A DNA stretch of 63,270 nt, counting the filler. It is 8 parts of 8 records of this genome, joined end to end, with 100 filler letters (N's around TTAATTAATTAA, not from the genome) between each part and the next. Parts side by side here need not be neighbours in the genome. Positions count along the whole stretch, not along the records: positions 16,992 to 29,625 come from SRR31156797_40486; 7 more parts are not named here. One strand, written 5' to 3'. The position numbers and the translations under genes are program-made. The notes below the pieces were generated by a model. It was not told the origin of the DNA, ran no database searches, and saw nothing but the letters and a program-made list of their open reading frames with translations. Positions 4,776-34,951 of this stretch are shown here, one piece after another. How positions within the stretch are numbered: the stretch's first letter is position 1; every line of letters begins with the position of its first letter.

Positions 4776-4822
4776 ATAGAAGATTGTAATTCTTTGTAAT
4801 ATATCATCCAAATAAAATAAGT

Positions 4823-10973: not shown

Positions 10974-11073
10974 NNNNNNNNNNNNNNNNNNNNNNNNNNN
11001 NNNNNNNNNNNNNNNNNTTAATTAATTAANNNNNNNNNNNNNNNNNNNNNNNNNNNNNNNNNNNNNNNNNNNN
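10974..11073. other. Artificial contig linker
   Basis: N run with TTAATTAATTAA. Confidence 0.98.
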
Positions 11074-14132: not shown

Positions 14133-14388
14133 CGATACAAGCGAACGGCCGGACTGTTTCGGAGAGCTTGAAAAGGTGTTTCCCATGGGCGATCGGGGAT
14201 TGCGGGAGACGCCGGACGACTGCATGTACCACTGCCCCTGCAAGACCGCCTGCCTTCGGGCTGCCATGGACGGGGCCAGGGGGGTAAAGGTGCAGGAGGA
14301 ACTCGTTGAGCGGGGAGAGGAGGCAGGCATGCTGACCTTTTTCCAGCGGTGGTCCAGGAAGAAACAGCTGGCAAGAAAACGATCCTGA
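14125..14388 (+). CDS. Small Cys-rich hypothetical protein
   Basis: PDCFGELEKVFPMG..GLRETP..C...C..KT.CLR; overlaps the radC stop. Confidence 0.7.
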   Translation: MDNDTSERPDCFGELEKVFPMGDRGLRETPDDCMYHCPCKTACLRAAMDGARGVKVQEELVERGEEAGMLTFFQRWSRKKQLARKRS

Positions 14389-14508
14389 CCCGGAAGGGTA
14401 CACTCTTGTGTTTACTTTGTTTCGGGTTGGAAGTAGTATAAAACATTACCGGGGGCCCGCAACCCCGGGCATAACCATAATATCTGGCGGGATGATCCGG
14501 AGAAGCAT

Positions 14509-15690: not shown

Positions 15691-15695
15691 CAGGA

Positions 15696-16891: not shown

Positions 16892-16991
16892 NNNNNNNNN
16901 NNNNNNNNNNNNNNNNNNNNNNNNNNNNNNNNNNNTTAATTAATTAANNNNNNNNNNNNNNNNNNNNNNNNNNNNNNNNNNNNNNNNNNNN
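16892..16991. other. Artificial contig linker
   Basis: N run with TTAATTAATTAA. Confidence 0.98.
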
Positions 16992-17863
16992 AGGGTCCCC
17001 ATATCCGCAATCATCATCTGGATGGCCTGGTGTTTTGCCAGTGGGACCTTAAACTGGCGGCGCTGCCCGGCGTACAGAATCCCTTCCTCCAGTGCCGCCT
17101 GGGCAATCCCCAGGGCTTGAGCCGCGATCCCCATGCGGCCCGTATCCAGGGCCGCAAGACCGATTTTGAGACCCATGCCTTCCCGGCCCAGGAGATTATC
17201 GAGCGGCAGGCGGCAGTCATAGAGCCGTATGGAACTGACGGGGTTTGCCCGCATACCGCACAGATCCTCCAGGTCCCCCACCACAAACCCTTCGGTTCCC
17301 CGCTCCGCCACCACCACGCTGATCTGTTTGCGATCAGCGGACGGGTCGGTATTGAGGAATATGAGGCAGATGTCCGCAACGCCTCCGTTGGTCACGAATA
17401 CCTTGTTGGCGTTGACCACATAAGCGTCTCCATGGGACACGGCCGTTGCCTCAATACCCGACGCGTCCGATCCCGCGTTGGGTTCCGTCAGGCAGAAAGC
17501 GCCAATTTTTTCGCCACGGGCCAAAGGCGGTGCCCACCTTTCTTTCTGGGCCTGTGATCCGAAAGCCAGGATGGGATAGAGGGCCACACTGTTGTGGACC
17601 GTTACACAGAGCCCCAGGCTGCCGCTGGCCCTGCTGATCTCTTCAACGATAATGGCGTAGCTTAAGGAATCCAGTTCCGCGCCACCCAGTTCTCTGGGTG
17701 CCTGGATGCCGAAATATCCCAATTTTCCCATCTTTTCCACCACTTCCCAGGGAAACCGGGCCTCCCGATCAATCTCACCGGCAATGGGCCTGATTTCCCG
17801 TTCACAGAAGGAGCGAACGGCTCGCCGCACGATACGATGTTTTTCAGATAGTATACCGTCCAT
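16992..17863 (-). CDS. Acyl-CoA dehydrogenase (3' truncated)
   Basis: GAFCLTEPNAGSDA, KVFVTNG, GRMGIAAQALG, RRQF. Confidence 0.93.
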
Positions 17864-18020
17864 AAATTCTCTTTATTTCCAAAATCACAAGAAACCGGTC
17901 GAGACCTCAGGTCTCCGGTAAAGGTCGGGGATTAGGGTCGCTCGGGGAAAAACATTTAAAAGGGCAGGATAAACGACTGTTTCAGTCAGGCAAAACACCT
18001 TTATCAAGAATATGCAAAAG

Positions 18021-18452
18021 TCATTTCCGGGTGTACACACCTTTGCCGACACCTTTGATTTTATCCTGCTTTTTAAGCCGGTGAAGGATATTGCTCAGTT
18101 TTTTCTTACCAAAACCCGTTTCCTTTTGCAGTTCATCCAATGTAATGGATTTTCCGGCACCGCTGATTATTTCGTAAACCAGCGCCGTTGCGTTAAGGGC
18201 CGGCTTTTCCTTAGGAATCGTCTTATCCGGGCTTTCTTCAACCGCCCCGGTCCGGATGTTATCATCCACATCGGAATCAAACTCCTTCTTGAAATTCCCG
18301 TTATCCATGGAACCCACATAACTGTCCAGTTTATCAGCGATGGCATGAACGCCCTGGGCCAATGTCCGCAAACCTTCACCAAAAGTCTTCATAAATGTTT
18401 CCAGCTCTTTCATAGCCCATAACCTCCTGCAGAGTTTCATCATCGATTCCAT
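18021..18452 (-). CDS. Hypothetical protein with C-terminal winged-HTH
   Basis: ITLDELQKETGFGKKKLSNILHRLKKQDKIKGVGKGVY. Confidence 0.65.
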   Translation of the reverse strand: MESMMKLCRRLWAMKELETFMKTFGEGLRTLAQGVHAIADKLDSYVGSMDNGNFKKEFDSDVDDNIRTGAVEESPDKTIPKEKPALNATALVYEIISGAGKSITLDELQKETGFGKKKLSNILHRLKKQDKIKGVGKGVYTRK

Positions 18453-18562
18453 CCCGTCTGTCGGGTATTAACTGAGAAATCAGCCTCACCCCGTCTTCCC
18501 AATCTATTCTACATATCAGGCAAATCTTTGCTTTTCAATGAAAAAAAGTATCATCAATAATA

Positions 18563-18578
18563 TTTGACCCGGATCAAA
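18563..18578. promoter_or_regulatory. FNR-type palindromic operator
   Basis: TTTGACCCGGATCAAA, close to TTGAT-N4-ATCAA, between divergent genes upstream of the Crp/Fnr gene. Confidence 0.6.
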
Positions 18579-18653
18579 GGAACATGGTAGGTTTGCCTGC
18601 GGAAAACACCGGCGATCATTTTCCCAATCATTTATCATATGGAGTCGGCCTGA

Positions 18654-19346
18654 ATGAGCGATTTAGATATTATTTCCAGCGCCCTTATCTTTGACGGACT
18701 TCCCCGGCAACAACTTGAACAGATCAAAGATGTGGCGATTTCCAGGAATTACACCCGGGGTGAAATCATCTTTATGGAGCAGGAGAGGGGGAACGGCTTC
18801 TACCTGGTGGCGGAGGGGATGGTGAAAATCTTCAAGGTATCACCATCGGGTAAAGAACAGATCCTCCATGTTTTCGGCCCCGGAGAGCCTTTCGGGGAGG
18901 TACCGGTATTTTCCGGGCAACGATTCCCCGCCAATGCGGAAGCCATTCGAAAATCAAGGCTCCTCTTTTTCCAAAGAACCGCATTCCTGGAACTGATTAC
19001 GGCCCATCCATCTCTCGCCTTGAACATGCTCGCGGTGCTCTCCATGCGGCTTCGGCAATTCACCCATCAAATCGAAAATCTTTCCTTGAAGGAAGTCCCC
19101 GCGCGCCTGGCCGCGTACCTGATTTACCTGTCAACGGAACAGGAAAGAGAGGATTTCGTAACCCTCGATATTTCAAAGGGACAACTGGCAAGCCTTCTGG
19201 GAACCATCCCCGAAACCCTTTCCCGGATCCTGAACCGGATGAACAAGCAGGGATTCATCGAAACAAAAGACCGCACCATCCGGTTGCTGAATCGTGAAGG
19301 GCTTGAATCCCTTTCCATCCATGGGAAAAAAAATGAACTGACATAG
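18654..19346 (+). CDS. Crp/Fnr family regulator (HcpR/Dnr-like)
   Basis: cNMP-binding fold (GEPFGE); [17 protein letters not shown]; no FNR Cys cluster. Confidence 0.9.
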
Positions 19347-19423
19347 AAAAGTACTTGATATTTTTATCAGGAACAGCTAAAAAGACTGATTATCATAATG
19401 TCCAGCAGGGAGGAATCATTCCA

Positions 19424-19636
19424 ATGTCAAAAGTATGCGATATCTGTGGCAAAAAACCGCTTGTCGGTTACAACGTCAGCCACGCTCACAATAAAACCAA
19501 GAAACGCTGGTATCCTAACCTTCAAAGCGTTAAGTGTGTCAAAGACGGTCAAACCGTAAAAATCAAGGCCTGCACCAGCTGCATCAAATCCGGCCTTGTT
19601 GAAAAGCCCGTGAAGAAAACCTTTCAAGCGTCCTGA
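19424..19636 (+). CDS. rpmB: 50S ribosomal protein L28
   Basis: [34 protein letters not shown]...[16 protein letters not shown]. Confidence 0.96.
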
Positions 19637-21774
19637 AGCCTTTCAACAATCAGCACGTGTCTCACCTTTTTGATGGAACGGATTATGTCCTGAAGCTGGG
19701 CATAATCCTCCACCTCAATCGTAAATAGAGCGATGCCTTTATTGTCCACCGTGGTTTTCACTTCGGCCTGGATGATGTTGGCGTCTTTCAGGCTGAAAAT
19801 GGTACTGATATCCGCCAGGATCCCCTTCCCTTCCACGGTGATAACCCGCAATCTGGCCGGATAGGTATTTTTCTCCGAAGGCTCCCATGAGACGGCTACC
19901 AAGCGTTCGGGATCGGCTTCTTTGATATGCCGGCAGTTTTCATTGTGAATGGCCACGCCACTTCCACGGGTAATAAACCCGAGTACTTTCTCGCCGGGCA
20001 GGGGTTGGCAGCAATTGGCAAAATGGAGCAGCATATCACTCACACCATCCACCTTGATGCCCGCATCCGCTTTGGGCCGGGTCAGTCGGCTGACCACCTT
20101 GCTGACCAACCCTTGAGGGCTCTCCTCTTTATCCACCAGTTTGGGTCTGAGACGTCCCACCACCTGCACGGCCGAAACCTTCCCAAAACCGATCTGTGCA
20201 ACAAGATCCTCCCCTGATTGGAAAGAAAGTTCCTTGGCCACGGCAGCAACCTGCTCGCTCTTGAGTAGATGGGGGACCTTCAATCTTTCCTGCTGCAACG
20301 CCTTCTCCAGGATGCTCCTGCCCAGGGAGATACTTTCGTCTTTTCCCTGGGTCTTAATCCATTGCCTGATCTTGGTTTTTGCCTTGGAGGTATGAACGAA
20401 ATTCAACCAGTCTTTACTGGGATGCTGCTTCGGGGAGGTCATCACCTCGATGATATTGCCGTTTTTCAGAGGGGTTCTAAGCGGAACCATTCGACCGTCA
20501 ACCTTTGCCCCGGTGCACTTTTCACCCACCTCCGAATGGATGCTGTAGGCAAAATCGATCATGGTGGCCCCTTTTGGAAAAGATTTCACCTCACCGGTGG
20601 GCGTGAACACATAGACCTCATCGGGGAAGAGGTCCATTTTAACGGTGTCTAAAAACTCCTGGGGGTCTTTCAGGTTTTTCTGCCAGTCGAGCAGCTCCTT
20701 GAGCCATGCGAACTGCTTTTCATCGGTTTTCCGGGCAGCATCCCCTTCTTTGTATTTCCAGTGGGCCGCAATGCCGCTCTCGGCCACCCGGTTCATATCC
20801 CAGGTCCTGATCTGAACTTCCATCCTCTCCCTCACCGGACCGAAAACGGTCGTATGCAGAGACTGATACATGTTGGCTTTGGGAACGGAGATGTAATCCT
20901 TGAATCGTTTGGAGACGGGTTTCCACATGGAATGGATATGCCCGAGGGCCTCATAGCACTCCTTAATGGTATTGACGATCACCCGGAAAGCCAGGATGTC
21001 ATAAACCTGACCCACTTCGAGATCCTGGGCGATCATCTTTTTATAGATACTGTAGAAGTGTTTCTGTCGACCCATGATGGTGGCGGAGACATTGGCTTTG
21101 GCCAGTTCCTCCGTCAGAATATCCTGGATGTTCTTTAAAAATTCCCCCATTTCGCCCTGGCGCCGAGCCGTGAGGTCTTTGATACTGGCATAAATCTCCG
21201 GTTCCAGGTAAAAGAGACACAGGTCCTCGAGGCTGCTCTTGATCCAGTTGATACCCATCCTACCCGCCAGAGGAGCATAGATATCCAGGGTTTCGGTGGC
21301 AATGCGCCGCTGCTTTTCCTCAGCCTGAAACCCTAAAGTTCGCATGTTATGGAGCCTGTCCGCCAGTTTGACCAGAATCACACGGATATCCGTGGACATG
21401 GCGAGGATCATTTTGCGCACATTTTCGGCCTGGCGCTGCTTGGAACTCTTGAAATGGATTTTGCTGATTTTGGTAACACCGTCTACGATATTGGCGGTTT
21501 CCTCACCAAAAAGTTCCCTTATTTCATCCAGGTCCGCATGGGTATCTTCCACAACATCATGCAGCAATCCGGCGGCAATGCAGATGACGTCCATTTTCAG
21601 CTGGGTCAGGATATAGGCGGCTTCCAGGGGATGGGAGAGGTACGGTTCCCCCGAGAGACGTATCTGCCCCTGATGCACCTTGGCGGAGTAAACATAGGCC
21701 TTTTCGATCAACTCAATGTCCGCTTTCGGGTGGTAGCTGAGGACCTGGGAGGTAATGTCATTTAAGCGAATCAT
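19624..21774 (-). CDS. rel: Bifunctional (p)ppGpp synthetase/hydrolase (Rel/SpoT)
   Basis: HD motif [17 protein letters not shown], synthetase RQK...YQSLHT, TGS and ACT domains. Confidence 0.95.
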
Positions 21775-21784
21775 AAAGTCCCAG

Positions 21785-22954
21785 TCAATTTTTCCAGGTA
21801 GTTACAGAGGTCATTACCTTAATATTACCTTTTTCGGTGTTTGCGAGGGCCTTTTCAAAGGCTGATCCATCGTCTCTAGTCAGGTTCGGAATGAACCGAT
21901 TATACTTCTCAAGAGTTACCCTGACATTGCTATGCCCCAACATTTTTGACACCCATGTTATTGACTCACCGGCCGCAATATGCAGGGTCGCGAATGTGTG
22001 TCGCATGTGGACTGCGGGCTTTGGTTTCAGCCCAGAAAGCCGAAGGTAATGCTTGAACCGTCGCCCCAATGTTTTATGGGAATACTGTTTGCCTTTGAAC
22101 GGCCAAATGTATTCGCTAGAAAGGCCAACTCTTTCCCTTTGCCGGGTTAACGCCTTGAGGACTACGGGCCTTAAATCGACATCACGTTCCGAAGTGACTG
22201 TTTTAGGCGGGCCTTCTCTCTGTGTTATGTTACTCCGGGTACGTTTAATCTGCAACACATTGTTGAAGGTGTCCAGATCATCCCATTTAATTGAAATGAA
22301 TTCACCTGGTCTCAGGCCGGTACGGCTCCAGAACAGGATTAAATCGTGAAATTCCTTATCAACTTTTTTCAGCGTGTTCAGGAAGTGTTTCAATTCTTCG
22401 AAGCTAAGTGGCAGGATCTCCGATTTTGTCTTTTTCAACAGCCCAATATCTTCGCAGGCATAGATATCGGTTAAACCGCGTTTCTGTGCCCTTGCCATTG
22501 CCGTGCAAAAAAACCCCATAAAGGAATTGATAGATGCTGGAGCAAGTCCCTTCCCTTCCAGTGTTTTTCTGAAAAGCAGTGCTTCATGTTCTGTTATCTC
22601 ATGGACGGGGATTTGCCCGAAATATGGGCCGATATGGGTATTGTATGCGCTTTGCTTTGAGATGATGCTTGATTCCCTGTTTGACGATTCTGAAATCAAT
22701 TCCTCCCACCAATCACAGAAAAGCACCCCCTCAATTTTGAAATGCTTGTTTTTGGCGCCGTGAGGAAAGAATTCAGGGTAATGGAATGAGTTGTTTTTGA
22801 TATGATACTGGATGGCCTTGTCTTTGCTTTTCGCTATCTGCCGGTTTTTCTTCGTGTCCTTACCCATCGGCTCGAAGGCTCGGGTCCTGGAACCGGTGGG
22901 CAAATAAAAATAGAAATCCAGGTAAAGCAAGTCTCCCCTAATTCGTACTGCCAA
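21785..22954 (-). CDS. int: Tyrosine recombinase (phage integrase) with N-terminal arm-binding domain
   Basis: TGLRPGE (R), PPKT (K), HMRHTFA, LGHS, KY; probable TTG start at 22954 after GGAG. Confidence 0.93.
   Translation of the reverse strand: MAVRIRGDLLYLDFYFYLPTGSRTRAFEPMGKDTKKNRQIAKSKDKAIQYHIKNNSFHYPEFFPHGAKNKHFKIEGVLFCDWWEELISESSNRESSIISKQSAYNTHIGPYFGQIPVHEITEHEALLFRKTLEGKGLAPASINSFMGFFCTAMARAQKRGLTDIYACEDIGLLKKTKSEILPLSFEELKHFLNTLKKVDKEFHDLILFWSRTGLRPGEFISIKWDDLDTFNNVLQIKRTRSNITQREGPPKTVTSERDVDLRPVVLKALTRQRERVGLSSEYIWPFKGKQYSHKTLGRRFKHYLRLSGLKPKPAVHMRHTFATLHIAAGESITWVSKMLGHSNVRVTLEKYNRFIPNLTRDDGSAFEKALANTEKGNIKVMTSVTTWKN
21813..21831. repeat. Tandem ATTACCTT direct repeats (possible integrase arm-type sites)
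   Basis: ATTACCTT at 21813-21820 and 21824-21831, 11-bp phasing, near the host junction. Confidence 0.4.
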
Positions 22955-23186
22955 AACTCCCGTCCTCCGCCCGCATGAACTCGATAAAAGCATCGCGGAT
23001 GATAACAATACGCCCACCGACTTTCAAGAAATGTTTTCCCCGAAGCAAACGCCCGGTTGAAACCCATTGGTATAGTGTGGGTTCAGCAAGCCCGAAATGT
23101 TCAGCGGCATTCTTGATTCGCATGGAATACGGTGGGGAGCTTATCGTTCTTTCTTTGTGCGTTCTTCTTTTGGGTTGCGATTGCAT
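22938..23186 (-). CDS. Excisionase-like HTH protein
   Basis: AAEHFGLAEPTLYQWVS...GKHFLKVGGRI; overlaps the integrase start. Confidence 0.8.
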   Translation of the reverse strand: MQSQPKRRTHKERTISSPPYSMRIKNAAEHFGLAEPTLYQWVSTGRLLRGKHFLKVGGRIVIIRDAFIEFMRAEDGSFGSTN

Positions 23187-23254
23187 GTTTACCTCTCGAA
23201 TTTGATGGTTCCCTCTTGCTGAAATTCAAGCATGGGTTGGCATTTATCGTAAAT

Positions 23255-24415
23255 CTATCCTTTAATTACAGCCATCGGCCTTAACTCAACCTCGATTACA
23301 ACTAGATCGGCCTGATTCTCCATTACGGTGGAAATGTCCTTATAGGCGCCTGCCGCTTCGTCAAGGTCACTTTCGTTGCGGATAGCGTGTATAACGCCCA
23401 AATCGTCAAGCCGTTTCTTTTCAATATCTAAATCGAGAGACCGCTGAGCTTGTTTGCGGCCCATTCTTCGACCAGCTCCATGTGAACAGGAAAGGAAGCT
23501 GTCAGGTTTCCCTAACCCCCTTACAATAAAACTCGATGTCCCTTGAGAACCTGGAATGATACCCACCTCGCCATCCCTTGCTCTTGTAGCGCCCTTGCGA
23601 TGGACCATGACATTTTTCCCGAAATGACGTTCCATAGCAGCGTAATTGTGGGCAATATTAATGGGTTCTCCAAGCGTTATTTTGTTTACATTGTAGAGTA
23701 TTTCCTCGACCCGCTTCAGCATCCGACGTCTGTTTGCGAATGCAAAATCAACTGCGAACGCCATGGCCGCCAAATACTCAGCGCCTTCGGCACTATCCAG
23801 AGGAAGAAAGGCGAGTTCCCATGAATCGGGGACCGATGACAACCATTTTTCATTCAGGTTCCGCGCAACATCGTTGTAGTGTCGCGCAATTCTATATCCG
23901 AAGTTCCGTGAACCTGAATGCAACATAACCCATATGTGGCCGGAACTATCCCGTTGGATTTCGATGAAATGGTTCCCGCCACCGAGCGTGCCAATTTGGT
24001 GCATAGCATGGTCTATTTCTTTTTGGACAATCGGAACGTCTGGAGCGCTGTAAAATCCCTCCCAATCTTTCGGTTCCTTGTGACGCCTTTTCCCGACAGG
24101 AATTTGCCTTCTAATTCCGCTCATGATGTTTTTGATTTTATCAATGTCCAGGTCGTGACTCATGGCAGAGGTTTTTGCGGCCATCATCCCACATCCGATA
24201 TCAACCCCCACGGCATTCGGAACGATAACATCCTGAGTCGCCATAACACCACCGATAGGCATACCGTACCCCTGGTGAGCATCCGGCATAAGGGCAATAT
24301 GCCTGAAAACGAAAGGTAAATTCGCGAGGTTTTTGGCTTGCTGAAGGGCTCCCTCTTCAATGTCGTTAAGCCACAGTTTGATAGGTTTTTTCTCTGTTGA
24401 GATAACTTTTTCCAT
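23255..24415 (-). CDS. rtcB: RtcB family RNA ligase
   Basis: MPDAH.G.G.PIG, GVDIGCG, GTLGGGNHF, HSGSR, HNY, HRKGAT, SHGAGR, DE...AYK. Confidence 0.95.
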   Translation of the reverse strand: MEKVISTEKKPIKLWLNDIEEGALQQAKNLANLPFVFRHIALMPDAHQGYGMPIGGVMATQDVIVPNAVGVDIGCGMMAAKTSAMSHDLDIDKIKNIMSGIRRQIPVGKRRHKEPKDWEGFYSAPDVPIVQKEIDHAMHQIGTLGGGNHFIEIQRDSSGHIWVMLHSGSRNFGYRIARHYNDVARNLNEKWLSSVPDSWELAFLPLDSAEGAEYLAAMAFAVDFAFANRRRMLKRVEEILYNVNKITLGEPINIAHNYAAMERHFGKNVMVHRKGATRARDGEVGIIPGSQGTSSFIVRGLGKPDSFLSCSHGAGRRMGRKQAQRSLDLDIEKKRLDDLGVIHAIRNESDLDEAAGAYKDISTVMENQADLVVIEVELRPMAVIKG

Positions 24416-24416
24416 G

Positions 24417-24629
24417 TTAGTTCCTTTCTTTTATCGCCTTCCAGCACGGGCACCCGGGTGGAATGTATTTGGAGATACCGCGTTTGGTAGGTAGATCTTT
24501 ATGAAGGTCCATATAACTGTGCGGCAGTTCAACCTCATAGCTGCAGCTACCCTCGGTTAAAATCCGCCGGCCGCTCGGGTGCTTTTTCCATTTCGCGTAA
24601 CCGCAGGTTGTGCAGTCTTTCTTTTTCAT
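24417..24629 (-). CDS. Small Cys-rich phage protein
   Basis: CTTC...C...CPCW; coupled to rtcB. Confidence 0.6.
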   Translation of the reverse strand: MKKKDCTTCGYAKWKKHPSGRRILTEGSCSYEVELPHSYMDLHKDLPTKRGISKYIPPGCPCWKAIKERN

Positions 24630-24650
24630 CTAAAAATAACCTTTCGGTGT

Positions 24651-24941
24651 TTAAATAGGAGTCTCATCGTTATCCATTTTGATAGCAACAGCCAACAGTA
24701 ACAAGGCATTCCGAACCCGTGGACTCCGACCGCCACCGGTCCTTGGCATTCGGAATCTGCATGATGTCATAGGTCTCCGAAACACATTGACCCAAGCGTC
24801 CCCATCATTTCCAATGCAAACGCAGATCCCGTCAGACCTATTTCCGTCACAATCATCATGCGTCCTAAAGTATTGCTCCCCTGGCTCTATTTCGTTGGGC
24901 CAGAATGGTGTTTCGAGAATTTTCTTTATTTTTTCTTCCAT
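24651..24941 (-). CDS. Phage hypothetical protein
   Basis: RTHDDCDG...DGDAWV...FR..GGGRSPRVRNAL; ATG overlaps the upstream TGA. Confidence 0.7.
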   Translation of the reverse strand: MEEKIKKILETPFWPNEIEPGEQYFRTHDDCDGNRSDGICVCIGNDGDAWVNVFRRPMTSCRFRMPRTGGGRSPRVRNALLLLAVAIKMDNDETPI

Positions 24942-25199
24942 CAAAACAACCTCAGTTGGTTCATATCTCGTTTTCGGCGCCGGGTCTGGGCGTGATGTTC
25001 AGCGTCATACCGCAAATGACACGGGGCACATGCCGCGGTAAGGTTTTCCGGCCGACAATCCATTTCCACATGATTGCAATGGGAAACGGTAAGGGTCCTT
25101 CTGTGTGTGTCAAAAGGTTCCCCAGGGCGGCGATTCCTCCTTGACGGACAATGCTATTTCCCTCCAGTTTTCCGGGTATTTCGACCAATCAACGGGCAT
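24941..25199 (-). pseudogene. Frameshifted HNH-type phage protein
   Basis: MPVDWSKYPENWREIALSVKEE, then a frame change to RRPGEPFDTHRRTLTVSHCNHVEMDCRPENLTAACAPCHLRYDAEHHAQTRRRKRDMNQLRLF*. Confidence 0.75.
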
Positions 25200-25408
25200 T
25201 TTTCCGGTTGTCCCCATGTACTGGGCAAGCGGCGGATGAAGAGGCAAAGGACGTTTCATACTCACCGCAGATGCATCGATCAACTTTAAACAGTCTTTGC
25301 ATTCCATAGAGTTCCTCCAATTCAGGCTCATAATCCGCATAAAACCATGTGAATTCTGCACCATAAGGGTTCATCTCCGTTGTTTGTTGATCGGCTTCTT
25401 TCAATCCT

Positions 25409-25687
25409 CTATCCTTTCGTGCCCAAATGCGCACAGTTTTCGCAGAGAAGATCTCCAGCTTGGTCTTCCGGATGATCGCATTCACAACCAATAAGAGGGC
25501 ATTTTCTTTCATCCTTTTGAACAACCCACCCGTCCTTAACGGTTAGGTGGTTTCCACCATCATTTAATATCCGGATTGCACCATTCCGAAAATCCACCCA
25601 CTGACCGGCATAGTTGACCCGGATGTTTGTATCCGTCATTATCATGCTTGGCCTTTCGTTTGGCCGTATGTAAATTTCAAGTTGCAT
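25409..25687 (-). CDS. Phage hypothetical protein (Cys-rich C-terminus)
   Basis: RBS GGAGG; coupled to the 25677-25916 ORF. Confidence 0.6.
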   Translation of the reverse strand: MQLEIYIRPNERPSMIMTDTNIRVNYAGQWVDFRNGAIRILNDGGNHLTVKDGWVVQKDERKCPLIGCECDHPEDQAGDLLCENCAHLGTKG

Positions 25688-25904
25688 ATTCCCTCCTGTT
25701 CGGGTCCTTTGACATATAGTGGATCATGTGGGCGTCTTGATATCCGCGCCGGAATGCCGGGAATGTTATTTCATCACGATGCGGAGATAATCCCGCCGCC
25801 TCGGCTGCGCGGTATGATGCGCAAACGGCGTCCATACCAATTGGGCCGCACGGATTCTCCTCGAATGCTTTTTCTCCCAGTTTTTTTGCTTGTATTTTAT
25901 TCAT
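25677..25904 (-). CDS. Phage hypothetical protein
   Basis: ATG after GGAGG directly downstream of attC-like element 1. Confidence 0.6.
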   Translation of the reverse strand: MNKIQAKKLGEKAFEENPCGPIGMDAVCASYRAAEAAGLSPHRDEITFPAFRRGYQDAHMIHYMSKDPNRREYAT

Positions 25905-25916
25905 TTCTGCCTCCAA

Positions 25917-26048
25917 GAAAACGAACGTTCAAAATCAGCGGACCAGGCCGCCATCGTGAGGCCCATGCTTAGTGCAATGAATGAATGGCATTTCACATCC
26001 ACACTTAAAACGCGGGCGGTCTGGTCCGCTGCATGGGCTTGCGTTTTC
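25917..26048 (-). repeat. attC-like palindrome 1
   Basis: GAAAACG/CGTTTTC outer arms; 16/17-bp inverted repeat 25936-25952 / 26015-26031; minus strand ends GCTGATTTTGAAC-GTT followed by an RBS. Confidence 0.6.
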
Positions 26049-26168
26049 GATGTCACCAGCAAAGGTTCTAAGGTGCCGCAAAATCAAATCTTTGTCTTTT
26101 TCGAGACTATCCCAATAATGCTTCCGTGCCCATTTGATGAGCAGTTTGTCATATTCTGATTGTTTCAA
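25935..26168 (-). CDS. Phage hypothetical protein reading into attC-like element 1
   Basis: TTG after AGGAGG; its stop TGA lies in the L'-like arm. Confidence 0.6.
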   Translation of the reverse strand: MKQSEYDKLLIKWARKHYWDSLEKDKDLILRHLRTFAGDIENASPCSGPDRPRFKCGCEMPFIHCTKHGPHDGGLVR

Positions 26169-26180
26169 AACTACCTCCTA

Positions 26181-26228
26181 GAAAACGAACGTCTAAAATA
26201 ACCGGCCGCGTTGATTTGCTTGTTCGGG
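26181..26228 (-). repeat. attC-like palindrome 2 (short)
   Basis: Minus strand CCGAAC-AAGC-AAATCAAC-GCGGCCG-GTTATTT-TAGAC-GTTCG; AAAT(C)AAC pairs with GTTATTT leaving one extrahelical base. Confidence 0.55.
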
Positions 26229-26406
26229 CACTTAGGTTCCAGTCATGGTCTCTCTGGATATCCCATATGGGCTGCCTGGATACTCCCCGGGCATTTCCAC
26301 CCGGTTATTTTCCCATCGTGTTAATGGTTTCGTTTTCAGTGACCGTAGTATGAAAATCCCGCCATCGCTCGAAACCATATGCCCGAACAGTGTAATAGAT
26401 GGAAAA

Positions 26407-26775
26407 TTACTCCTTCCAATCCACCTCAAAAAGCTGCTGTTGCCCAGTGTAAAGAGTAAACGGCAACGGCTTAGGGTTTTCAAACACCCAACCAAAAGGT
26501 CCGAAAAACCAACGGCTTTCCGATTCTTCAACTATGTCAACAAAGTCCACGCGCCCAATGATGCCACCAAGTTCAAACTCACGTTTCGAGGGAAATTTAA
26601 ATGCCAAGAAATTCTTTTGGATCCAGTCATACCCCTCATGATCAAACGTCTTTGAAGCGTGAATCAAAAGCGGCCCTCGGTATTTTCTTTTCCATGTCCT
26701 GTTTTCGACATCCTTACGGGCATGGATGATCGCCCAGGCCCAGGGCTGTCTGATGGATAAGGCTTTCATGGTCAA
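26407..26775 (-). CDS. ASCH-domain protein
   Basis: KALSIRQPWAWAII..KDVENRTW...YRGPLLIHAS, GGIIG. Confidence 0.9.
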   Translation of the reverse strand: MTMKALSIRQPWAWAIIHARKDVENRTWKRKYRGPLLIHASKTFDHEGYDWIQKNFLAFKFPSKREFELGGIIGRVDFVDIVEESESRWFFGPFGWVFENPKPLPFTLYTGQQQLFEVDWKE

Positions 26776-27224
26776 TCTCCTGGAAGTACGTATGCTTCCA
26801 ATTCAACCCCTGCGTCTTCATACATCTGCCACGCCACACCGAAGCTGCTACTCCATCGTTCTTTAAGCTGATCATCCGTTACGCCTGTGGTCACCACGCG
26901 CCGGATCCCCGCTTGAATGATTTTTGCCGCGCAACCGGCGCAAGGTGGCATCGGCCATGTGTAAATAGTGCATTTTTCAAGGTCCTGCTGTGAGAAAAGA
27001 AGCGCGTTCTCTTCAGCATGGATTACGGCGGCATATTTGAAAACACGGTCATCGTACCGGTCAGGGTCATCATTAACCCCAGCCGCGAAACCGTTGTATC
27101 CTAAAGAAATAATCCGGTTCCCCTTGGCGATCACGGCGCCGACTTTGGTTGACGGATCTTTCGACCACTGGGCCACGGTCTGTGCCAGTTCCAAAAAGCG
27201 TTTATCCCATTTTTTGCTTTTCAT
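26772..27224 (-). CDS. dCMP deaminase family protein
   Basis: SKDPSTKVGA, GYNG, HAEENA, PCAGC. Confidence 0.92.
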   Translation of the reverse strand: MKSKKWDKRFLELAQTVAQWSKDPSTKVGAVIAKGNRIISLGYNGFAAGVNDDPDRYDDRVFKYAAVIHAEENALLFSQQDLEKCTIYTWPMPPCAGCAAKIIQAGIRRVVTTGVTDDQLKERWSSSFGVAWQMYEDAGVELEAYVLPGD

Positions 27225-27504
27225 GTTCCTCCACCGGTTCCCCCGGAACTATGCTATTTCTCATAATTTGTTTTACCGACTCCAAGGCGGCGTTCTCGTT
27301 AATCTCAGATATACCGCGGCCATTCGGGCCATACGCATGTTCCAGGGCCGGGAGTCCGACAATTCGTTTCAAGGCTTCCATATCGTCGGGGTTGGCCTTC
27401 TGTGCGGTAAATATTGGCTTCATTTCGTCATCTTCTTTTTTTTTGGGGGGCTTGATGGTATCGCACGATAGACAACCCGCCCCTCCACAGAATCTACATG
27501 ACAT
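27202..27504 (-). CDS. Phage hypothetical protein with N-terminal Zn-finger
   Basis: CRFCGGAGCLSC. Confidence 0.6.
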   Translation of the reverse strand: MSCRFCGGAGCLSCDTIKPPKKKEDDEMKPIFTAQKANPDDMEALKRIVGLPALEHAYGPNGRGISEINENAALESVKQIMRNSIVPGEPVEEHEKQKMG

Positions 27505-27517
27505 TCTTGTTTGCCTC

Positions 27518-27733
27518 CTATTCGAATTCTAAGGCTTCAACTGGAGCTATCCAACCCATGGGACCAAGGTCAACAATATCTGCTGAGACCTCTAGTTTTT
27601 CCGGTAGTTTTATTCTATACCAATCTAATAACCTATATTCGCCCGTTACGATTACCGTCTTTCCGATAAGAGTCGGATATCTTTTACTTTTTAAGACAGT
27701 TGCCTTACATGGGAATTCCATTTTTTCCTCCAA
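27518..27733 (-). CDS. Phage hypothetical protein
   Basis: Co-oriented short ORF with RBS. Confidence 0.55.
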   Translation of the reverse strand: MEEKMEFPCKATVLKSKRYPTLIGKTVIVTGEYRLLDWYRIKLPEKLEVSADIVDLGPMGWIAPVEALEFE

Positions 27734-27779
27734 GGGGAGCCCGCAGGTGTTTCTCTAAAATAATCCGACACTTAATCCC

Positions 27780-27799
27780 AAAAAGGGCCTAAGAGGCCC
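27780..27799 (-). terminator. Putative intrinsic terminator
   Basis: GGGCCT-CTT-AGGCCC hairpin followed by a T tract on the minus strand. Confidence 0.45.
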
Positions 27800-27804
27800 A
27801 CACC

Positions 27805-27981
27805 CTATTTTACGAATTTAAAACCACCGTTGTTGCACTTCCGGCACTCTTTACACATGGGAACAATGGCACCGTTGTAGGTATTGGGGGAAGACCCATC
27901 TTTGAGCTGCACCATTCGCACGTCTTGATTATTGCAATACTGAGAGATTCCCGTTTTTCCGCATTTTTTCTTGCTTTTCAT
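27805..27981 (-). CDS. 58-aa Cys-rich phage protein (not in ORF track)
   Basis: MKSKKKCGKTGISQYC...MCKECRKC...; ATGA overlap with the MTase stop. Confidence 0.6.
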   Translation of the reverse strand: MKSKKKCGKTGISQYCNNQDVRMVQLKDGSSPNTYNGAIVPMCKECRKCNNGGFKFVK

Positions 27982-28847
27982 GAGTTCACCGCCTTTTCAA
28001 CATCGTTTGTGAAGAGCCCCAATTGCCCGTGATTTACATCTTTATCTTTTACAGGCCTTTTCTTCTTCCGACCTTTTAACAAGCCTACGGCGCCTGTCTG
28101 CGCTTTTACGCTTTTCAGAAACGCATCCAGACCTCCGAAACCTCCGTCTTCCAGTATCCGGCAAAACGCATCGACAACAGGGACCCCGTCAGGCGTGACC
28201 ATATCAATAATCCCTGGCACATTTTCCATGACCATCATTTTCGGCTGTATTTCGCAGATAAGCCTGGCAAAATCGAAAACTAAACTGTTCCGAGGGTCCA
28301 TCACATTTTGTTTTCCGCCGCGGCTGAACCCCTGGCAAGGTGGTCCACCTGCAACAAGGTCCACCTCGCCCTTAGCCAAACCAACCACATCGAGAATTTT
28401 CTTTCCCGTCATTTTTTTTACGTCGCCCAAGAAAAAATGTCCGACACCAGCCGTTTCAGGATGATGGCTTATCCATCCGGATCCACTGACAGGCATGACA
28501 GCAATCCCGTTTTTAGTGTCGCGCTTTAACTGCTTTTGCAGCTCTCTTTCCATCGCCTCGAAGTCATCGTCCGTCGCAAAATGGAATTTACATGGAAAGG
28601 ACCCAAGGTTTGTCATGTACGTCATAGCGGCCACAGCCCAATGATCGACGGCCGCCACTACGTCGAACCCTGCTTGCATGAGCCCCAGAGACATCCCGCC
28701 AGCGCCGGCAAAAATGTCTATCGCCTTCGGCCGGGCACGCTCTCTTGCCGCTTCTTCGGTCAAGATTAATCCGGATGGTAATTCGACGTAATTATTTGCT
28801 GTATTCATCATCGTTTTCCCCCTCTTCCACAAATCATCCTGCAACAT
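27978..28847 (-). CDS. C5-cytosine DNA methyltransferase, N-terminal half only
   Basis: Motif I DIFAGAGG, motif IV GGPPCQGFS, motif VI ENVPG; no QxRxR, TRD or motifs IX/X seen. Confidence 0.85.
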   Translation of the reverse strand: MLQDDLWKRGKTMMNTANNYVELPSGLILTEEAARERARPKAIDIFAGAGGMSLGLMQAGFDVVAAVDHWAVAAMTYMTNLGSFPCKFHFATDDDFEAMERELQKQLKRDTKNGIAVMPVSGSGWISHHPETAGVGHFFLGDVKKMTGKKILDVVGLAKGEVDLVAGGPPCQGFSRGGKQNVMDPRNSLVFDFARLICEIQPKMMVMENVPGIIDMVTPDGVPVVDAFCRILEDGGFGGLDAFLKSVKAQTGAVGLLKGRKKKRPVKDKDVNHGQLGLFTNDVEKAVNS

Positions 28848-28850
28848 GCC

Positions 28851-29072
28851 TCAAAACAACCTCATCTGGTCTCCAGGCAAATACAACCATTCGCGCGGCC
28901 ACAAAACTGATTTATCCCACCTGATCCATTGCGACCGCTCGGGATCGCCTTTGGCTGGGCGGCATCGCCACATGTCGTCCATTTGGGGATGTTGTGGGTA
29001 GCATTCCATTTCTCGCCCGGTTGATTTGCAGGACCCGATTATCGGTTTTTTGCACTGCCAGATTTTATTCAT
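28851..29072 (-). CDS. Phage hypothetical protein
   Basis: MNKIWQCKKP...GDQMRLF*; coupled to the upstream ORF. Confidence 0.55.
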   Translation of the reverse strand: MNKIWQCKKPIIGSCKSTGREMECYPQHPQMDDMWRCRPAKGDPERSQWIRWDKSVLWPREWLYLPGDQMRLF

Positions 29073-29217
29073 CTTTTTCCAATCGCTCCAGAAACTCCCA
29101 AAGGTCATCCCGCCGCCCGCCGGCACGAAAGTTTTCCTCTTGATGCTTCTCCACGTCAAACGGGATCGGGTCGTCATCCAATTCAGGATGGTAAGGCTTC
29201 GGGGCGGCCGGGCTCAT
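29065..29217 (-). CDS. 50-aa acidic phage protein (not in ORF track)
   Basis: MSPAAPKPYHPELDDDPIPFDVEK...EKDE*; overlaps both neighbouring ORFs. Confidence 0.55.
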   Translation of the reverse strand: MSPAAPKPYHPELDDDPIPFDVEKHQEENFRAGGRRDDLWEFLERLEKDE

Positions 29218-29399
29218 GATGAAAAACCATATTCAATAAAAAACCTGACCGTGAAGAACAGCCATTTAAAATAGTACATTCCGAGTTTCAAATTTAAGGC
29301 AGGCTTCCATCGCCAATAAAGCACGTTGACCCCAAAACTGACCCGGAACCCTGCAATTCTTTTCCCGTTGTATTTTCCTTTGGGCCATCGGATTTCCAT
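29214..29399 (-). CDS. Phage hypothetical protein
   Basis: MEIRWPKGKYNGKRIAGF; TGATG coupling. Confidence 0.6.
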   Translation of the reverse strand: MEIRWPKGKYNGKRIAGFRVSFGVNVLYWRWKPALNLKLGMYYFKWLFFTVRFFIEYGFSS

Positions 29400-29506
29400 C
29401 ACGCAATTACCGCCACCTCCGGCAGTTTATCTTTGATCCATTCGGCAATCCGCTGAATGGCTGTCAGCTTCCATGCTCCGCCGTCTGCTTCGTACAGGGC
29501 GCCCTG
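29399..29506 (-). CDS. C-terminus of a conserved phage protein, interrupted by a CRISPR repeat
   Basis: QGALYEADGGAWKLTAIQRIAEWIKDKLPEVAVIA*; I recognise ALxEADGGAW as a phage-protein motif. Confidence 0.65.
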   Translation of the reverse strand, partial: QGALYEADGGAWKLTAIQRIAEWIKDKLPEVAVIA

Positions 29507-29625
29507 CGACTCATCCCCGCGCCCGTGGGTGAAACCGTCGCCAACTGGATCAGTCCTTTCGAAGACTCGACTCATCCCCGCGCCCGTGGGTGAAACTGGG
29601 CCGGGTTCCGCAACCAGTACAAATC
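29507..29625 (-). CRISPR. Type I-E-like CRISPR fragment: 2 identical 29-nt repeats, one 32-nt spacer, one partial spacer
   Basis: CGACTCATCCCCGCGCCCGTGGGTGAAAC at 29507-29535 and 29568-29596 (61-nt period); reverse complement GTTTCACCCACGGGCGCGGGGATGAGTCG resembles I-E repeats. Confidence 0.8.
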
Positions 29626-29725
29626 NNNNNNNNNNNNNNNNNNNNNNNNNNNNNNNNNNNNNNNNNNNNTTAATTAATTAANNNNNNNNNNNNNNNNNNN
29701 NNNNNNNNNNNNNNNNNNNNNNNNN
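29626..29725. other. Artificial contig linker
   Basis: N run with TTAATTAATTAA. Confidence 0.98.
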
Positions 29726-30609
29726 AACCGGCTGACATGGGGCAGGAGAATGGCATTGCATTCGCCATGGGGAAGGTCATAGAAGCCCCCAAGCTGGTGG
29801 GCCATGGCATGGACGTGACCCAGGCTGGCATTGTTGAAGGCCATGCCGGCAAGGTATTGGGCAAAACACATCCCTTCCCTGGCTTGAATATCTTCCCCGT
29901 TTGCCACGGCCGGGCGGAGATGGGTGGCAATGAGTTCAATGGCTTTTTCCGCAGCAGAATCGGTCATGGGGTTGGCAATGGTGGAAACATAAGCTTCAAC
30001 GGCATGGGTGAGGGCATCCATGCCGGTGGCAGCAGTGAGAGCCGGCGGCATGCCGACCATGAGCATTGGGTCGTCAATGGCCACGCCCGGGGTTACCCGC
30101 CAGTCCACAATGGCCATCTTTACCTTTCTTTTTGTGTCGGTGATGATACAGAACCGGGTCATTTCAGAGGCCGTTCCTGCGGTGGTGTTTACCGCCACAT
30201 AGGGAGGCATGGGAGCTGTTGACTGGTCGACCCCTTCATAGTCGTGTATGGTGCCGCCGTTGGCCACCACCAGACCGATACCCTTGCCGCAGTCATGGGC
30301 ACTGCCGCCGCCCAGTGTGATCAGGGAATCGCATTGGGCGGATTTATAGGTTTCAACCCCTTCAGCCACATTGGTGTCCGTGGGGTTGGGAACGGTATCA
30401 TCATATATAACCCAGTCCATGCCGGAAGCCTTGAGGCTTTCGGTGACCTGGCCGGTGATGCCGGCGGCTGTGATGCCCTTGTCGGCAACGATGAGGGGGG
30501 TTTTTCCACCTAGTGCCTTAATTTTCTCAGGGATTTCTTTGCTCGCACCGATTCCGACCAGGGTGACACTGGGAATAAAATAACTATAGACTTGTTCGAT
30601 AGCTGCCAT
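29726..30609 (-). CDS. Iron-containing alcohol dehydrogenase (3' truncated)
   Basis: GGGSAHD, NTTAGTASE, DALTHAVE, HAMAHQLGG..LPHG. Confidence 0.93.
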
Positions 30610-30700
30610 GATTTACCATCCTTTGTTTAGATTCTTAAAAAATCGGCCCCGCTGGGGCATTATTCCGGAATGGCAGTTTTGCCATTTCCTTCCTATTTAG

Positions 30701-30716
30701 AGCAAATCATGTGCCA
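30701..30716 (-). promoter_or_regulatory. Sigma54 -24/-12 promoter of the ADH gene
   Basis: TGGCAC-ATGAT-TTGCT on the minus strand. Confidence 0.85.
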
Positions 30717-30772
30717 TTAATAGTTTTTTGTTTTATTTCAAATACTTAATCATCACACCACCTATTAGGCCA

Positions 30773-30936
30773 GGCGTTATTTTGCCCCGGAAGCGGGGAC
30801 AAAAGTCATTGCAGCGGTCCTTTCGGAAATAGGGAGGTGGATGATAATCGTTTGATATTACAAAAGATACACCATAGCTTGAAAAACGGCGGGGCAAAAT
30901 ACCCCTCGACTTTCTTGAGTGGGACATTTTATCCCC
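30773..30936. promoter_or_regulatory. Four putative enhancer (UAS) sites
   Basis: Imperfect GGG(G/A)CA-Nx-CCC palindromes at 30773-30788, 30795-30808, 30891-30905 and 30921-30936. Confidence 0.55.
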
Positions 30937-30939
30937 TTA

Positions 30940-32280
30940 CTACCCTTCCGTGTATTGGGACAGTTTTCTGTACAGGGTCTTTCTATTGATCCCAAGAACC
31001 TCAGCTGTCTTCCGCCGGTTACCGCTGAAATAGTCGAGCATTTTCATTATATGCTGGCGTTCAACAGAGGCCAGGGAGAGGGGAACACTCTCTTCCCGGC
31101 CCCCCTCCACCAATTCTCTTGGCAGGCACCGTTCCGTAATCAGCCCGCTTTCAGACAGTATAATGGACCGCTCAAGTACATTTCGAAGTTCCCTTACATT
31201 ACCCGGCCATTGATACCGCCAAATCGCATCCATGGCTTTATCCACAACCCTGGGCGGCTGGCTGCCCGGACTTAAGGTGGTCAGAAAATAATCCACCAGC
31301 AGGGGCAGATCCTCCTTTCGTTCCCTCAGGGGAGGAATCTCAATGTTAAAGGCATTGATGCGGTGAAAAAAAGCCTCGTTAAAGCAGCTTGCGGCAACCT
31401 CTTCCGCCAGCCGGCGGTTGGTGGCAAATAAAAAACGGATACTGACCTTCCGTTCTTCTTTCTCGCCGATCCGCCGATATGACTGGGTTTCAAGTGCCCG
31501 CAGAAGAGAGGCCTGAACTTCAAGGGGCAATTCCCCGATCTCATCCAGAAAGAGAGTGCTTTCATGGGCAAAGGCCATGAGGCCCTCCTGGGTCTGTGTG
31601 GCACCGGTAAAGGCCCCTTTGACGTGGCCGAAAAGCTCGCTTCTGGCCAGTTCTTTCTGCAGGGAGGCGCAGTTTTTCGCTATCATGGGACTTGCCCCGC
31701 AGGCAGAGCCCTGGTGTATCATTCGGGCCACCACATCCTTGCCCGAACCTGATTCTCCGGTAATAAGCACCGGAATTCTGGCCGGGGCCACCTTGTTCAC
31801 CAGAAATTTCACCTCTTGAATGGCCCTGGACTTGCCGATAAATTTGACCGCATTCCTGGAGCTGTCGGCACTGTGCCTAAGCATGGCATTTTCCCGGGAA
31901 AGGCGGACCCGCTGGTGGGCCTTTTCCACGACAAGCGCCAGTCTGTCCAGATTGAAAGGCTTCCGGATGAAATCATAGGCCCCCAGCTTCATGGCTTCCA
32001 CGGCCGTGTCAATGTCCCCGTGTCCTGTTATCAGGATAAGTTCACAGTCGGGAGCGGATTCCCTGATTTTTATGAGAAGATCAAGCCCTTTTACATCCGG
32101 CAGTTTTAAATCCAGGAGCACCACGTCAAACCAGAAATCCCTGACCATCTCCATTCCCCGGCTGCCGTTTTCCGCAGTATGGACCGTACACCGGGAATCG
32201 GCGAGCTCATTTTTCAACAGGCGGCGGATGGGTTCCTCATCATCAATAACCAGAATATTGTACTTTTCTTTTAAGATCAT
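30940..32280 (-). CDS. Sigma54-dependent response regulator (NtrC family)
   Basis: Receiver domain, GESGSGKD, GAFTGA, LFLDEIGE, C-terminal Fis HTH. Confidence 0.95.
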   Translation of the reverse strand: MILKEKYNILVIDDEEPIRRLLKNELADSRCTVHTAENGSRGMEMVRDFWFDVVLLDLKLPDVKGLDLLIKIRESAPDCELILITGHGDIDTAVEAMKLGAYDFIRKPFNLDRLALVVEKAHQRVRLSRENAMLRHSADSSRNAVKFIGKSRAIQEVKFLVNKVAPARIPVLITGESGSGKDVVARMIHQGSACGASPMIAKNCASLQKELARSELFGHVKGAFTGATQTQEGLMAFAHESTLFLDEIGELPLEVQASLLRALETQSYRRIGEKEERKVSIRFLFATNRRLAEEVAASCFNEAFFHRINAFNIEIPPLRERKEDLPLLVDYFLTTLSPGSQPPRVVDKAMDAIWRYQWPGNVRELRNVLERSIILSESGLITERCLPRELVEGGREESVPLSLASVERQHIMKMLDYFSGNRRKTAEVLGINRKTLYRKLSQYTEG

Positions 32281-34851: not shown

Positions 34852-34951
34852 NNNNNNNNNNNNNNNNNNNNNNNNNNNNNNNNNNNNNNNNNNNNTTAAT
34901 TAATTAANNNNNNNNNNNNNNNNNNNNNNNNNNNNNNNNNNNNNNNNNNNN
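34852..34951. other. Artificial contig linker
   Basis: N run with TTAATTAATTAA. Confidence 0.98.

Follow-up and report, generated by a model that had tools for sequence, protein, structure and literature searches.

This analysis concerns two imperfect palindromes in a 63,270-base stretch of draft-genome DNA (the window), which is composed of eight draft contigs. Both palindromes lie on a 12.6-kb contig that includes a prophage-like island, where they stand between an ASCH-domain gene and a gene for a protein of 75 amino acids (aa). They are called site 2 and site 1, in the order of transcription. It is probable, judging from their sequence, that they are integron-type attC sites that form a two-site CALIN (a cluster of attC sites lacking integron integrases) between these two genes. 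In the right half of the contig, every gene is on the minus strand. The order of transcription on that strand is small open reading frames (ORFs), a C5 DNA methyltransferase, dCMP deaminase, ASCH and then a gap of 240 nucleotides (nt), which contains no convincing gene. The order continues with a 77-aa ORF, a 75-aa ORF, five small Cys-rich ORFs, RtcB, a tyrosine integrase and the host relA gene. The features needed for the argument are as follows, with positions counted along the window:

16992-29625, 12.6 kb: the draft contig with both sites, as placed by the map of N linkers
about 21785 to the contig end at 29625: the prophage-like island
27978-28847, minus strand: C5 DNA methyltransferase gene
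26407-26775, minus strand: ASCH-domain gene (phrog_3193), upstream of the cluster and overlapping the dCMP deaminase gene by 4 nt
26381-26388, minus strand: left half-site GTTCGGGC, 18 nt past the ASCH stop codon, with a putative left junction at G26388/TT
26190-26387, minus strand: candidate cassette A, 198 nt, its bounds taken from the complementary core pair
26184-26228, minus strand: site 2, attC-type, 45 nt, the best match in the window to covariance model R2 (see below), closing cassette A. Its left half consists of R'' CCCGAAC (26222-26228), a 4-nt spacer and L'' AAAT[C]AAC with one bulged base; its right half follows a 7-nt loop and consists of L' GTTATTT, a 5-nt spacer and R' GTTCGTT (26184-26190)
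25926-26189, minus strand: candidate cassette B, 264 nt, comprising a 22-nt leader with GGAGG, the 77-aa gene and site 1
25935-26168, minus strand: 77-aa gene P0001, with a TTG start
25920-26049, minus strand: site 1, attC-type, 130 nt, the second-best R2 match, closing cassette B. Its parts are R'' CGAAAAC (26043-26049), arms at 26010-26031 and 25936-25957, and R' GTTCGTT (25920-25926)
25907-25925, minus strand: leader of the 75-aa gene, TTCGTTTTCTTGGAGGCAG
25677-25904, minus strand: 75-aa gene P0002, downstream of site 1, with an ATG start at 25904
21785-23017, minus strand: phage-type tyrosine integrase with an arm-binding domain, from Pfam and PHROG matches

The two sites end in a common sequence. 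The 12-mer ACGTTCGTTTTC is present on the minus strand in exactly two copies in the window, at 26181-26192 and 25917-25928. Past each copy come T[A/T]GGAGG and a start codon, which is TTG at 26168 in the first case and ATG at 25904 in the second. When up to two mismatches are allowed there are nine matches, and each of the seven that are not exact has two mismatches. The copies sit within a 64-nt direct repeat of 70% identity and 264-nt spacing, and the leader of the 75-aa gene agrees with that of the 77-aa gene (26171-26189) at 17 of 19 positions. The 12-mer is a composite: the end of an attC, comprising a spacer in ...AC and the core GTT, is immediately followed by the start of the next gene's leader (TTCGTTTTCT.GGAGG). 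The first part of the 12-mer agrees with ...aaCGUU, the consensus of the reference family described below. An exact search of IMG/VR with the 19-nt leader motif gave no matches.

In the alignment to the model, both sites show the layout of an attC, that is, an R pair, an unpaired central spacer, an L pair that carries an extrahelical base on the 5' half of the top strand (C for site 2, G for site 1), and a variable terminal structure. Here, the pairings of site 2 are CGAAC/GTTCG and AAAT[C]AAC/GTTATTT, while the arms of site 1 form a 22-nt inverted repeat, 86% complementary, in the 3' third of the 77-aa ORF. The Cys/His-rich tail of this ORF's product is encoded in the interior of site 1, and the stop codon falls within the right arm. 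The left core of an attC is RYYYAAC, and the usual length is about 57-141 nt, so that site 1 at 130 nt lies inside this range and site 2 at 45 nt below it. Each site has its AAC and GTT triplets, with flanks (CCCG and CGAA on the left, CGTT on the right) that fit YYY/RRRY poorly. An attC is situated 3' of a promoterless ORF and shares its orientation; both sites are oriented with the genes and are located at gene ends. The predicted DNA folds of the bottom strand have energies of -3.7 kcal/mol for site 2 and -27.2 kcal/mol for site 1. As DNA, site 1 beats its shuffles (z -2.2 and -2.8); site 2 does not, whether as free RNA or as DNA (z +0.6 to +1.7). In site 2 the terminal structure is all but absent, the 22 consensus positions of the terminal stem being reduced to 1 nt. 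An Rfam scan of 21000-31000 gave no match at E<=5.

Much of this had been described in an earlier, sequence-only reading of the same DNA. Its description of two palindromes that end in an identical word before GGAGG and a start codon is borne out by the two exact copies of the 12-mer, both so placed. The AAC/GTT ends and the L pair with its extrahelical base are recovered as well, with the pairing of site 2 returned as written by both the minimum free energy fold and the model alignment. One ORF was said to end in an arm, and the TGA of the 77-aa ORF does lie in the right arm of site 1. Site 2 is unusually short (45 nt) and the left core of site 1 is atypical, both as that reading had it.

The material against which the sites were compared came from relatives of the 77-aa gene. 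DNA was fetched around these relatives from 58 metagenome loci and 3 viral loci, a subset of which contains dense, same-strand arrays of imperfect, G+C-rich hairpins, 52-131 nt long, with NNNNAAC...GTTNNNN ends. Four such elements in one locus, L141, fold alike: AAC pairs with GTT, 4-5 nt of unpaired spacer follow, and then come a stem with a single bulge and a variable stem-loop. A covariance model built from these four sites, R1, finds 57 full-length copies in 11 loci, all on the gene strand and 56-122 nt long. The spacing between copies is 47-2,057 nt, and all but three of the gaps are 131-760 nt. In the alignment of the 57 sites, whose fitting to the model favours the structure, 90.0% of cells are paired compared to 69.1% in shuffles. 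The covariation score is 0.401 versus 0.099 in shuffles, a value that none of 500 shuffles reaches, and it drops to 0.072 or less when the partner columns are slid by 1-3 positions. The bulged base is T in 25 of the 57, G in 18, C in 13 and A in one. The ends of the reference sites are A-Y-M-Y-AAC and GTT-R-K-R-Y, the latter being near the published GTTRRRY core.

The ends of the units between these hairpins are also related. When the six bases outside the left core of each site are compared with the six outside the right core of the preceding one, leaving out a single pair that is 2,057 nt apart, the mean complement is 4.71 of 6 positions, and 41 of 45 pairs reach at least 4. The corresponding values are 2.18 of 6 for the two flanks within a single site (57 sites) and 2.38 of 6 for 5,000 random pairs. 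Complementary ends are as expected if each unit circularises and recombines at its right core. Further support came from breakpoints between related loci. L101 and L102 have different upstream hairpins and are 100% identical from GTT onward; the two have gene and hairpin in common with L141 and diverge from it directly past GTTA; and in the pairs L094/L095 and L105/L108 identity starts at (C)GTT. By structure, cassette ends and breakpoints, the reference-array elements are thus best classed as attC sites.

These arrays carry, among many unknowns, DNA methyltransferases, a Rha-like regulator and a transposase. In the array at 1000-3920 of L092, a DNA methyltransferase, an opposite-strand, insertion sequence (IS)-type transposase (phrog_506) and a Rha/anti-repressor-like regulator are found between sites. 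The cargo of L092 is phage-type and lies inside a cassette array. The reference-array contigs are short and may come from chromosomes or from phages.

The narrow model R1 gave no match in the window at E<=10. A second covariance model, R2, was built from the 57 reference sites, none of which is from the window, and run with filters off over both strands of all 63,270 bases. It returned six matches at E<=10, among which site 2 ranks first and site 1 second, each of them on the minus strand. Site 2 scores 22.2 bits, with an E-value of 0.007 in the window and 0.0009 in the island. Over 21700-29700, again with filters off, only the two sites are found and nothing else scores above 8.5 bits. As a control, R2 was run on 715,571 bases from 80 phage loci, which had been picked only for their ASCH gene. 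This produced 10 matches in 4 loci, nine of which fall in three clusters that behave as attC arrays.

The position of site 1 is that of an attC in the 77-aa gene family. The 77-aa protein has 50 homologues in metagenomes, of which 25 were aligned. Their first 39 residues, which include HYWDSLEKDKDLILRHLRTF, are near-invariant and their tails differ completely, being fast-evolving and often bearing CxC…CxxC patterns. In 10 of 12 array loci, the attC begins 3-11 nt past codon 39 of the homologue, and in the window this gap is 2 nt. At the same position, L085, L086 and L088 have sites of 127-128 nt with a Cys-rich tail inside and the stop codon in the right arm, resulting in proteins of 77-79 aa. 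DNA homology to the window behaves similarly: among the best 60 rows, 39 alignments cover the 77-aa gene, none of these extends beyond 26042, and in 30 the end falls at 26042-26060. Cassette B measures 264 nt, and its homologue in L101/L102 about 265 nt. The protein itself belongs to no Pfam, PHROG or NCBIfam family, no member of its family was found in GTDB genomes, and a protein atlas gives weak matches (0.80) to viral hypothetical clusters.

For site 2, the corresponding support is in the ends of cassette A. The left half-site GTTCGGGC and GCCCGAAC, which is the left core of site 2 at R'' plus one flanking base, are complementary at 8 of 8 positions. The model finds no hairpin or attC before the half-site at 26381-26388, and there is no GTTGCCC upstream on the minus strand of the island. 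In form, the left junction therefore suggests insertion at a bare GTT. At the 3' end of the ASCH gene, a third attC was considered and rejected, there being no model match and no complementary GTTGCCC upstream in the island. The only ORF in cassette A encodes 48 aa (26232-26378) and has no Shine-Dalgarno sequence; no homologue of it was found, and the DNA of the cassette has no match in loci L001-L141. Cassette A may be non-coding. Its RNA fold joins the two ends (z -2.25), and the termini at 26221-26248 and 26362-26389, each 28 nt, are 75% complementary. On the plus strand, a terminator-like hairpin is present at 26287-26304, followed by TTATTTTCCC.

Among the checks that the sequence-only reading had proposed were covariance scoring and a comparison of relatives at the G/TT point. 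With an independently built covariance model the sites are the top two matches in the window, and in metagenome loci the homologous cassettes of the 77-aa family change neighbours at G/TT. Its inference that the phage early region is assembled from cassettes is supported for the two junctions, which the covariance model recognises, and does not extend to the early region as a whole, where, over 21700-29700 and with filters off, only these two sites are present. That the whole region is built of cassettes is thus not supported, as only two junctions are attC-like.

In the usage of Qi et al. 2023, a CALIN comprises at least two attC sites within 3 kb, with no integron integrase (IntI) nearby. 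The two sites, as scored by the home-made model R2, are 264 nt apart on the same strand and the 12.6-kb contig has no such integrase. The sequence-only reading had seen no IntI, and this holds: the tyrosine integrase of the island scores 25.8 bits on TIGR02249, for which the cut-off is 265 bits, and so falls outside the integron integrases. A scan of 28 chosen ORFs of at least 58 aa on or beside the contig, and of 35 chosen ORFs of at least 130 aa in the rest of the window, turned up no further Phage_integrase domain. A complete integron would have IntI, with its specific extra domain, beside the array, and none was found here among the scanned ORFs.

The proposed mechanism involves an integrase supplied in trans, either by the host or by a co-resident element, which would recognise the folded single strand of the attC. 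Strand exchange would then take place between the G/TT of the right core and a G/TT target just past the ASCH gene. Cassette A would start at GTTCGGGC (26388) and end with site 2, for which crossover is placed between G26190 and T26189; cassette B would end with site 1, for which it is placed between G25926 and T25925. That IntI acted at these junctions is what we infer. Both sites look worn, as site 2 is without a terminal stem and the left core of site 1 is mismatched to the start of its cassette. For this reason, they are read as a fossil or low-activity cluster and not as active shuffling, and it is doubtful that shuffling is ongoing at these sites.

Several observations weigh against the assignment to attC. 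Site 2 is shorter (45 nt) than every full-length site collected, the minimum being 52 nt, and its bottom-strand fold (-3.7 kcal/mol) is weaker than that of all 56 reference sites, which range from -4.6 to -19.6 kcal/mol with a median of -12.3. The score of site 1 is weak at 15.7 bits, with an E-value of 0.27 in the window and 0.034 in the island, and a third match, a degenerate short alignment elsewhere in the window, comes close to it at 14.1 bits. R2 is a home-made model with a short calibration, making its E-values rough, and some 10 of the 57 sites used to train it lie behind homologues of the 77-aa gene, which leaves the score of site 1 less than fully independent. The right cores, GTTCGTT, depart from GTTRRRY, and only 5 of the 57 reference sites have C at the fourth position. 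Cassette B does not obey the cassette-end rule, as 1 of 6 positions is complementary in the register of the model (CGAAAAC versus TTCGTT). A 7-nt complement, GAAAACG/CGTTTTC, appears only when the register is moved by a few bases. Finally, IntI was found neither in the island nor in the other scanned ORFs of the window, the assembly of which is fragmentary, and no attI or promoter was identified. A 2-nt deletion in the left core of site 1 was entertained and dropped, as the alignment with L085, L086 and L088 backs the model register. No attC follows the 75-aa gene according to the model, and R''-like words past that gene (CCCGAAC at 25702 and GAAAAC at 24975) were set aside, as they have no hairpin or GTT partner and are expected by chance.

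The strongest competitor, which we nonetheless consider improbable, takes the repeated leader (ACGTTCGTTTTCT.GGAGG) as the element that matters. In this account, the leader is a translation-initiation or regulatory linker, or a short patch of homology through which gene boundaries recombine, as has been proposed for the mobile regulatory cassettes of T4-type phages, and the hairpins are incidental. Such linkers exist in the collected loci. In L103, L115, L116, L121 and L131, another leader of 17 nt, CAGCACYACYGGAGGTG, precedes successive genes in 1-4 copies per locus, and at the three junctions that were read in L116 (1149-2016) it has no hairpin. This leader is a repeated ribosome-binding linker that lies directly past a stop codon and before the start of the next gene. 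Neighbouring cassettes in L141 have similar leaders as well, and those of the window are alike at 17 of 19 positions. What this account leaves unexplained are the model matches, the bulged-stem anatomy and the 8/8 core pair of cassette A, and also the start of an attC a few bases past a conserved gene block, as in the arrays. As the leader is outside the attC core, a repeated leader is in any case compatible with attC sites.

A second and still less probable account is that the hairpins are intrinsic terminators or RNA-processing sites, which divide early transcription units. Both hairpins are at gene ends and have short T runs past their right arms (TTATTTT and GATTTT). Furthermore, attC sites are thought to hold weak terminators, according to Qi et al. 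2023 (PMC9892861), and to that extent the view presented there speaks for termination. An intrinsic terminator has a stable, G+C-rich stem with a T run directly behind it on the transcribed strand. The folds do not speak for it: a terminator scan lists neither site on the minus strand, site 2 has a weak stem and folds less well as RNA than its shuffles do (z +1.28 and +1.66), the RNA fold of site 1 reaches only z -1.38 around an interior of 60-70 nt, and the Rfam scan was empty at E<=5. Least probable is chance, meaning that the palindromes are unrelated and a short intergenic stretch happens to be duplicated; it would suit the score of site 1, which is near model noise, and the short, weak site 2. 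Against it, the two best matches in a 126-kb search space both fall at gene ends, on the gene strand and separated by 264 nt, and one abuts a gene whose relatives have an attC at the same position.

The joins between contigs are linkers of the form N44-TTAATTAATTAA-N44, located at 5520-5619, 10974-11073, 16892-16991, 29626-29725, 34852-34951, 50276-50375 and 57949-58048. The GC content differs between regions, from 29% at 1-5.5 kb up to 59% at 12-16 kb. Several genes are cut by contig joins, including those for gyrA, an acyl-CoA dehydrogenase, Fe-ADH and DUF1538. The bin from which the contigs come may be mixed and consequently, the absence of a gene from the window carries little weight. A public contig spans 16992-29625 with no differences and the same end base. 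At that end, 29535-29625, there is a tandem repeat of about 55 nt, in which cacccacgggcgcggggatgagtcg is present twice, and the public contig connects 29625 back to 29568. This repeat is probably the cause of the assembly break inside the prophage. The contig end cuts the island, in which no structural genes are visible.

Relatives of the locus that have an empty site were sought in several collections. By blastn, INPHARED phages gave only short RtcB or ASCH matches of at most 80% identity. Relatives of the ASCH protein reach at most 60% identity in IMG/VR and 57% in GTDB genomes, and neither the 77-aa nor the 75-aa gene is present in the IMG/VR loci of these relatives. In the contigs of the public run X1, possibly from the source sample, there is no joint at either G/TT and one form only, with no excised or cassette-free form; as contigs lose rare variants, a single form in X1 says little. 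A homologue search with the 75-aa protein P0002 gave none. The five small Cys-rich ORFs (70-111 aa, 24417-25687), which lie between the 75-aa gene and RtcB, have no family match and none was found in the IMG/VR, metagenome or G001/G003 loci (L001-L143).

Sites of this kind, some with an integrase of their own, are also found on viral contigs, and three of the four control loci with R2 matches are informative here. G003 (locus L142, IMG/VR) is a 45.1-kb viral contig with terminal repeats and an estimated completeness of 100%. It encodes an IntI that scores 397 bits on TIGR02249 (cut-off 265) and has 11 attC-type sites in its first 20 kb, eight of them beside intI (13158-15816) and three at 4344-5793. 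Taken in order, 8 of the 10 consecutive pairs are 6/6 on the cassette-end rule. From these sequence features, the region at 11610-15816 of L142 (G003:C1) is classed as a complete integron. Other genes on the same contig are those for an endolysin, a primase, HNH nucleases, a methyltransferase and ASCH. Most of the longest ORFs between its sites run against the attC orientation, on the other strand. L145, a second viral contig (40.3 kb), encodes an IntI of 395 bits at 4001-4933 and, directly upstream of it on the other strand, an attC-type match of 29.0 bits at 3665-3722. In a third, of 43.7 kb (L147/L148), at least seven attC-type matches in L148 lie beside an apparent N-terminal fragment of IntI.

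A parallel to the window is G001, a 58.9-kb viral contig with terminal repeats and an estimated completeness of 100%. Its ASCH gene (L143, 6194-6607) is flanked by attC matches at 6066-6117 and 6570-6641, and two more are present at 11395-11741. The early region (L143 being G001:C1 22000-36000) encodes a CII-like regulator, a single-strand annealing protein, a Holliday-junction resolvase and SSB. This bracketing of ASCH seems to match what is present in the window, with better preserved sites.

The viral contigs with their own IntI (G003 and L145), the bracketed ASCH gene of G001 and the recurring 77-aa cassette, which has a zinc-ribbon-like tail inside its attC and whose nearest protein clusters, at weak scores, are mostly viral, are the reason for raising a broader reading. 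Integron machinery might be a regular tool for accessory-gene turnover in a lineage of temperate phages, of which the prophage in the window would be a worn member; many "chromosomal" arrays from sediment and groundwater could then be phage-borne. This is speculative and, in our judgement, unlikely as it stands. Phages and integrons are usually seen as separate routes of gene exchange, and a cassette cluster in a prophage shows how each can feed the other: cassettes can travel in phage particles and phages can tap the cassette pool for small accessory genes. To this, the comparison set adds arrays with phage-type genes, at least two viral contigs with their own IntI and a cassette family in which the recombination site is coding. 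As the sites in the window look worn, their own direct functional importance is probably small, and what the present case adds is a prophage of an uncultured organism.

Four known systems invite comparison. T4-type phages have mobile regulatory cassettes of promoter and stem-loop, which move by homologous recombination between repeated promoter-stem-loops. The window resembles these in having a short repeated stem-loop and leader beside small accessory early genes, but the T4-type elements are without AAC/GTT cores, a bulged L box and complementary cassette ends. Gene cassettes can also insert at secondary GTT-type sites that are neither attI nor attC, as is known from the integron literature of the 1990s. 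The left side of the cluster would fit such an event, with a bare GTT junction lacking a hairpin directly past a phage gene, and an insert that ends with an attC whose right core would be completed by target bases. For this putative secondary-site insertion, searches of INPHARED, IMG/VR and GTDB found no empty-site relative.

Sedentary chromosomal integrons are matched by the reference arrays (L095, L102, L141 and others), which have closely spaced, co-oriented and mutually similar attC sites, mostly single small ORFs, complementary cassette ends and G/TT boundaries. In contrast, the window has two sites only, and IntI, attI and a promoter were not found in it.

Literature searches found a single paper centred on attC sites in phage genomes, that of Qi et al. 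2023 (PMC9892861). It reports integron components in 21 of 10,705 phage genomes, with 17 CALINs among them and, in a cryptic Shewanella prophage, one complete integron. In addition, six attC sites of virulent phages were tested with attI1 and IntI1, of which five recombined, and methyltransferase cassettes and GTTRRRY-like boundary motifs are described. The phage CALINs share with the reference arrays the DNA methyltransferase genes in cassettes. They differ from the window in that the sites here were scored with the home-made R2, look decayed and include one of 45 nt, and in that the host here is an uncultured draft genome with a prophage cut by the contig end. With the window they share at least two co-oriented attC sites between accessory phage genes and no IntI nearby. 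This kind of system is therefore already in print (2023), and the window adds a further case.

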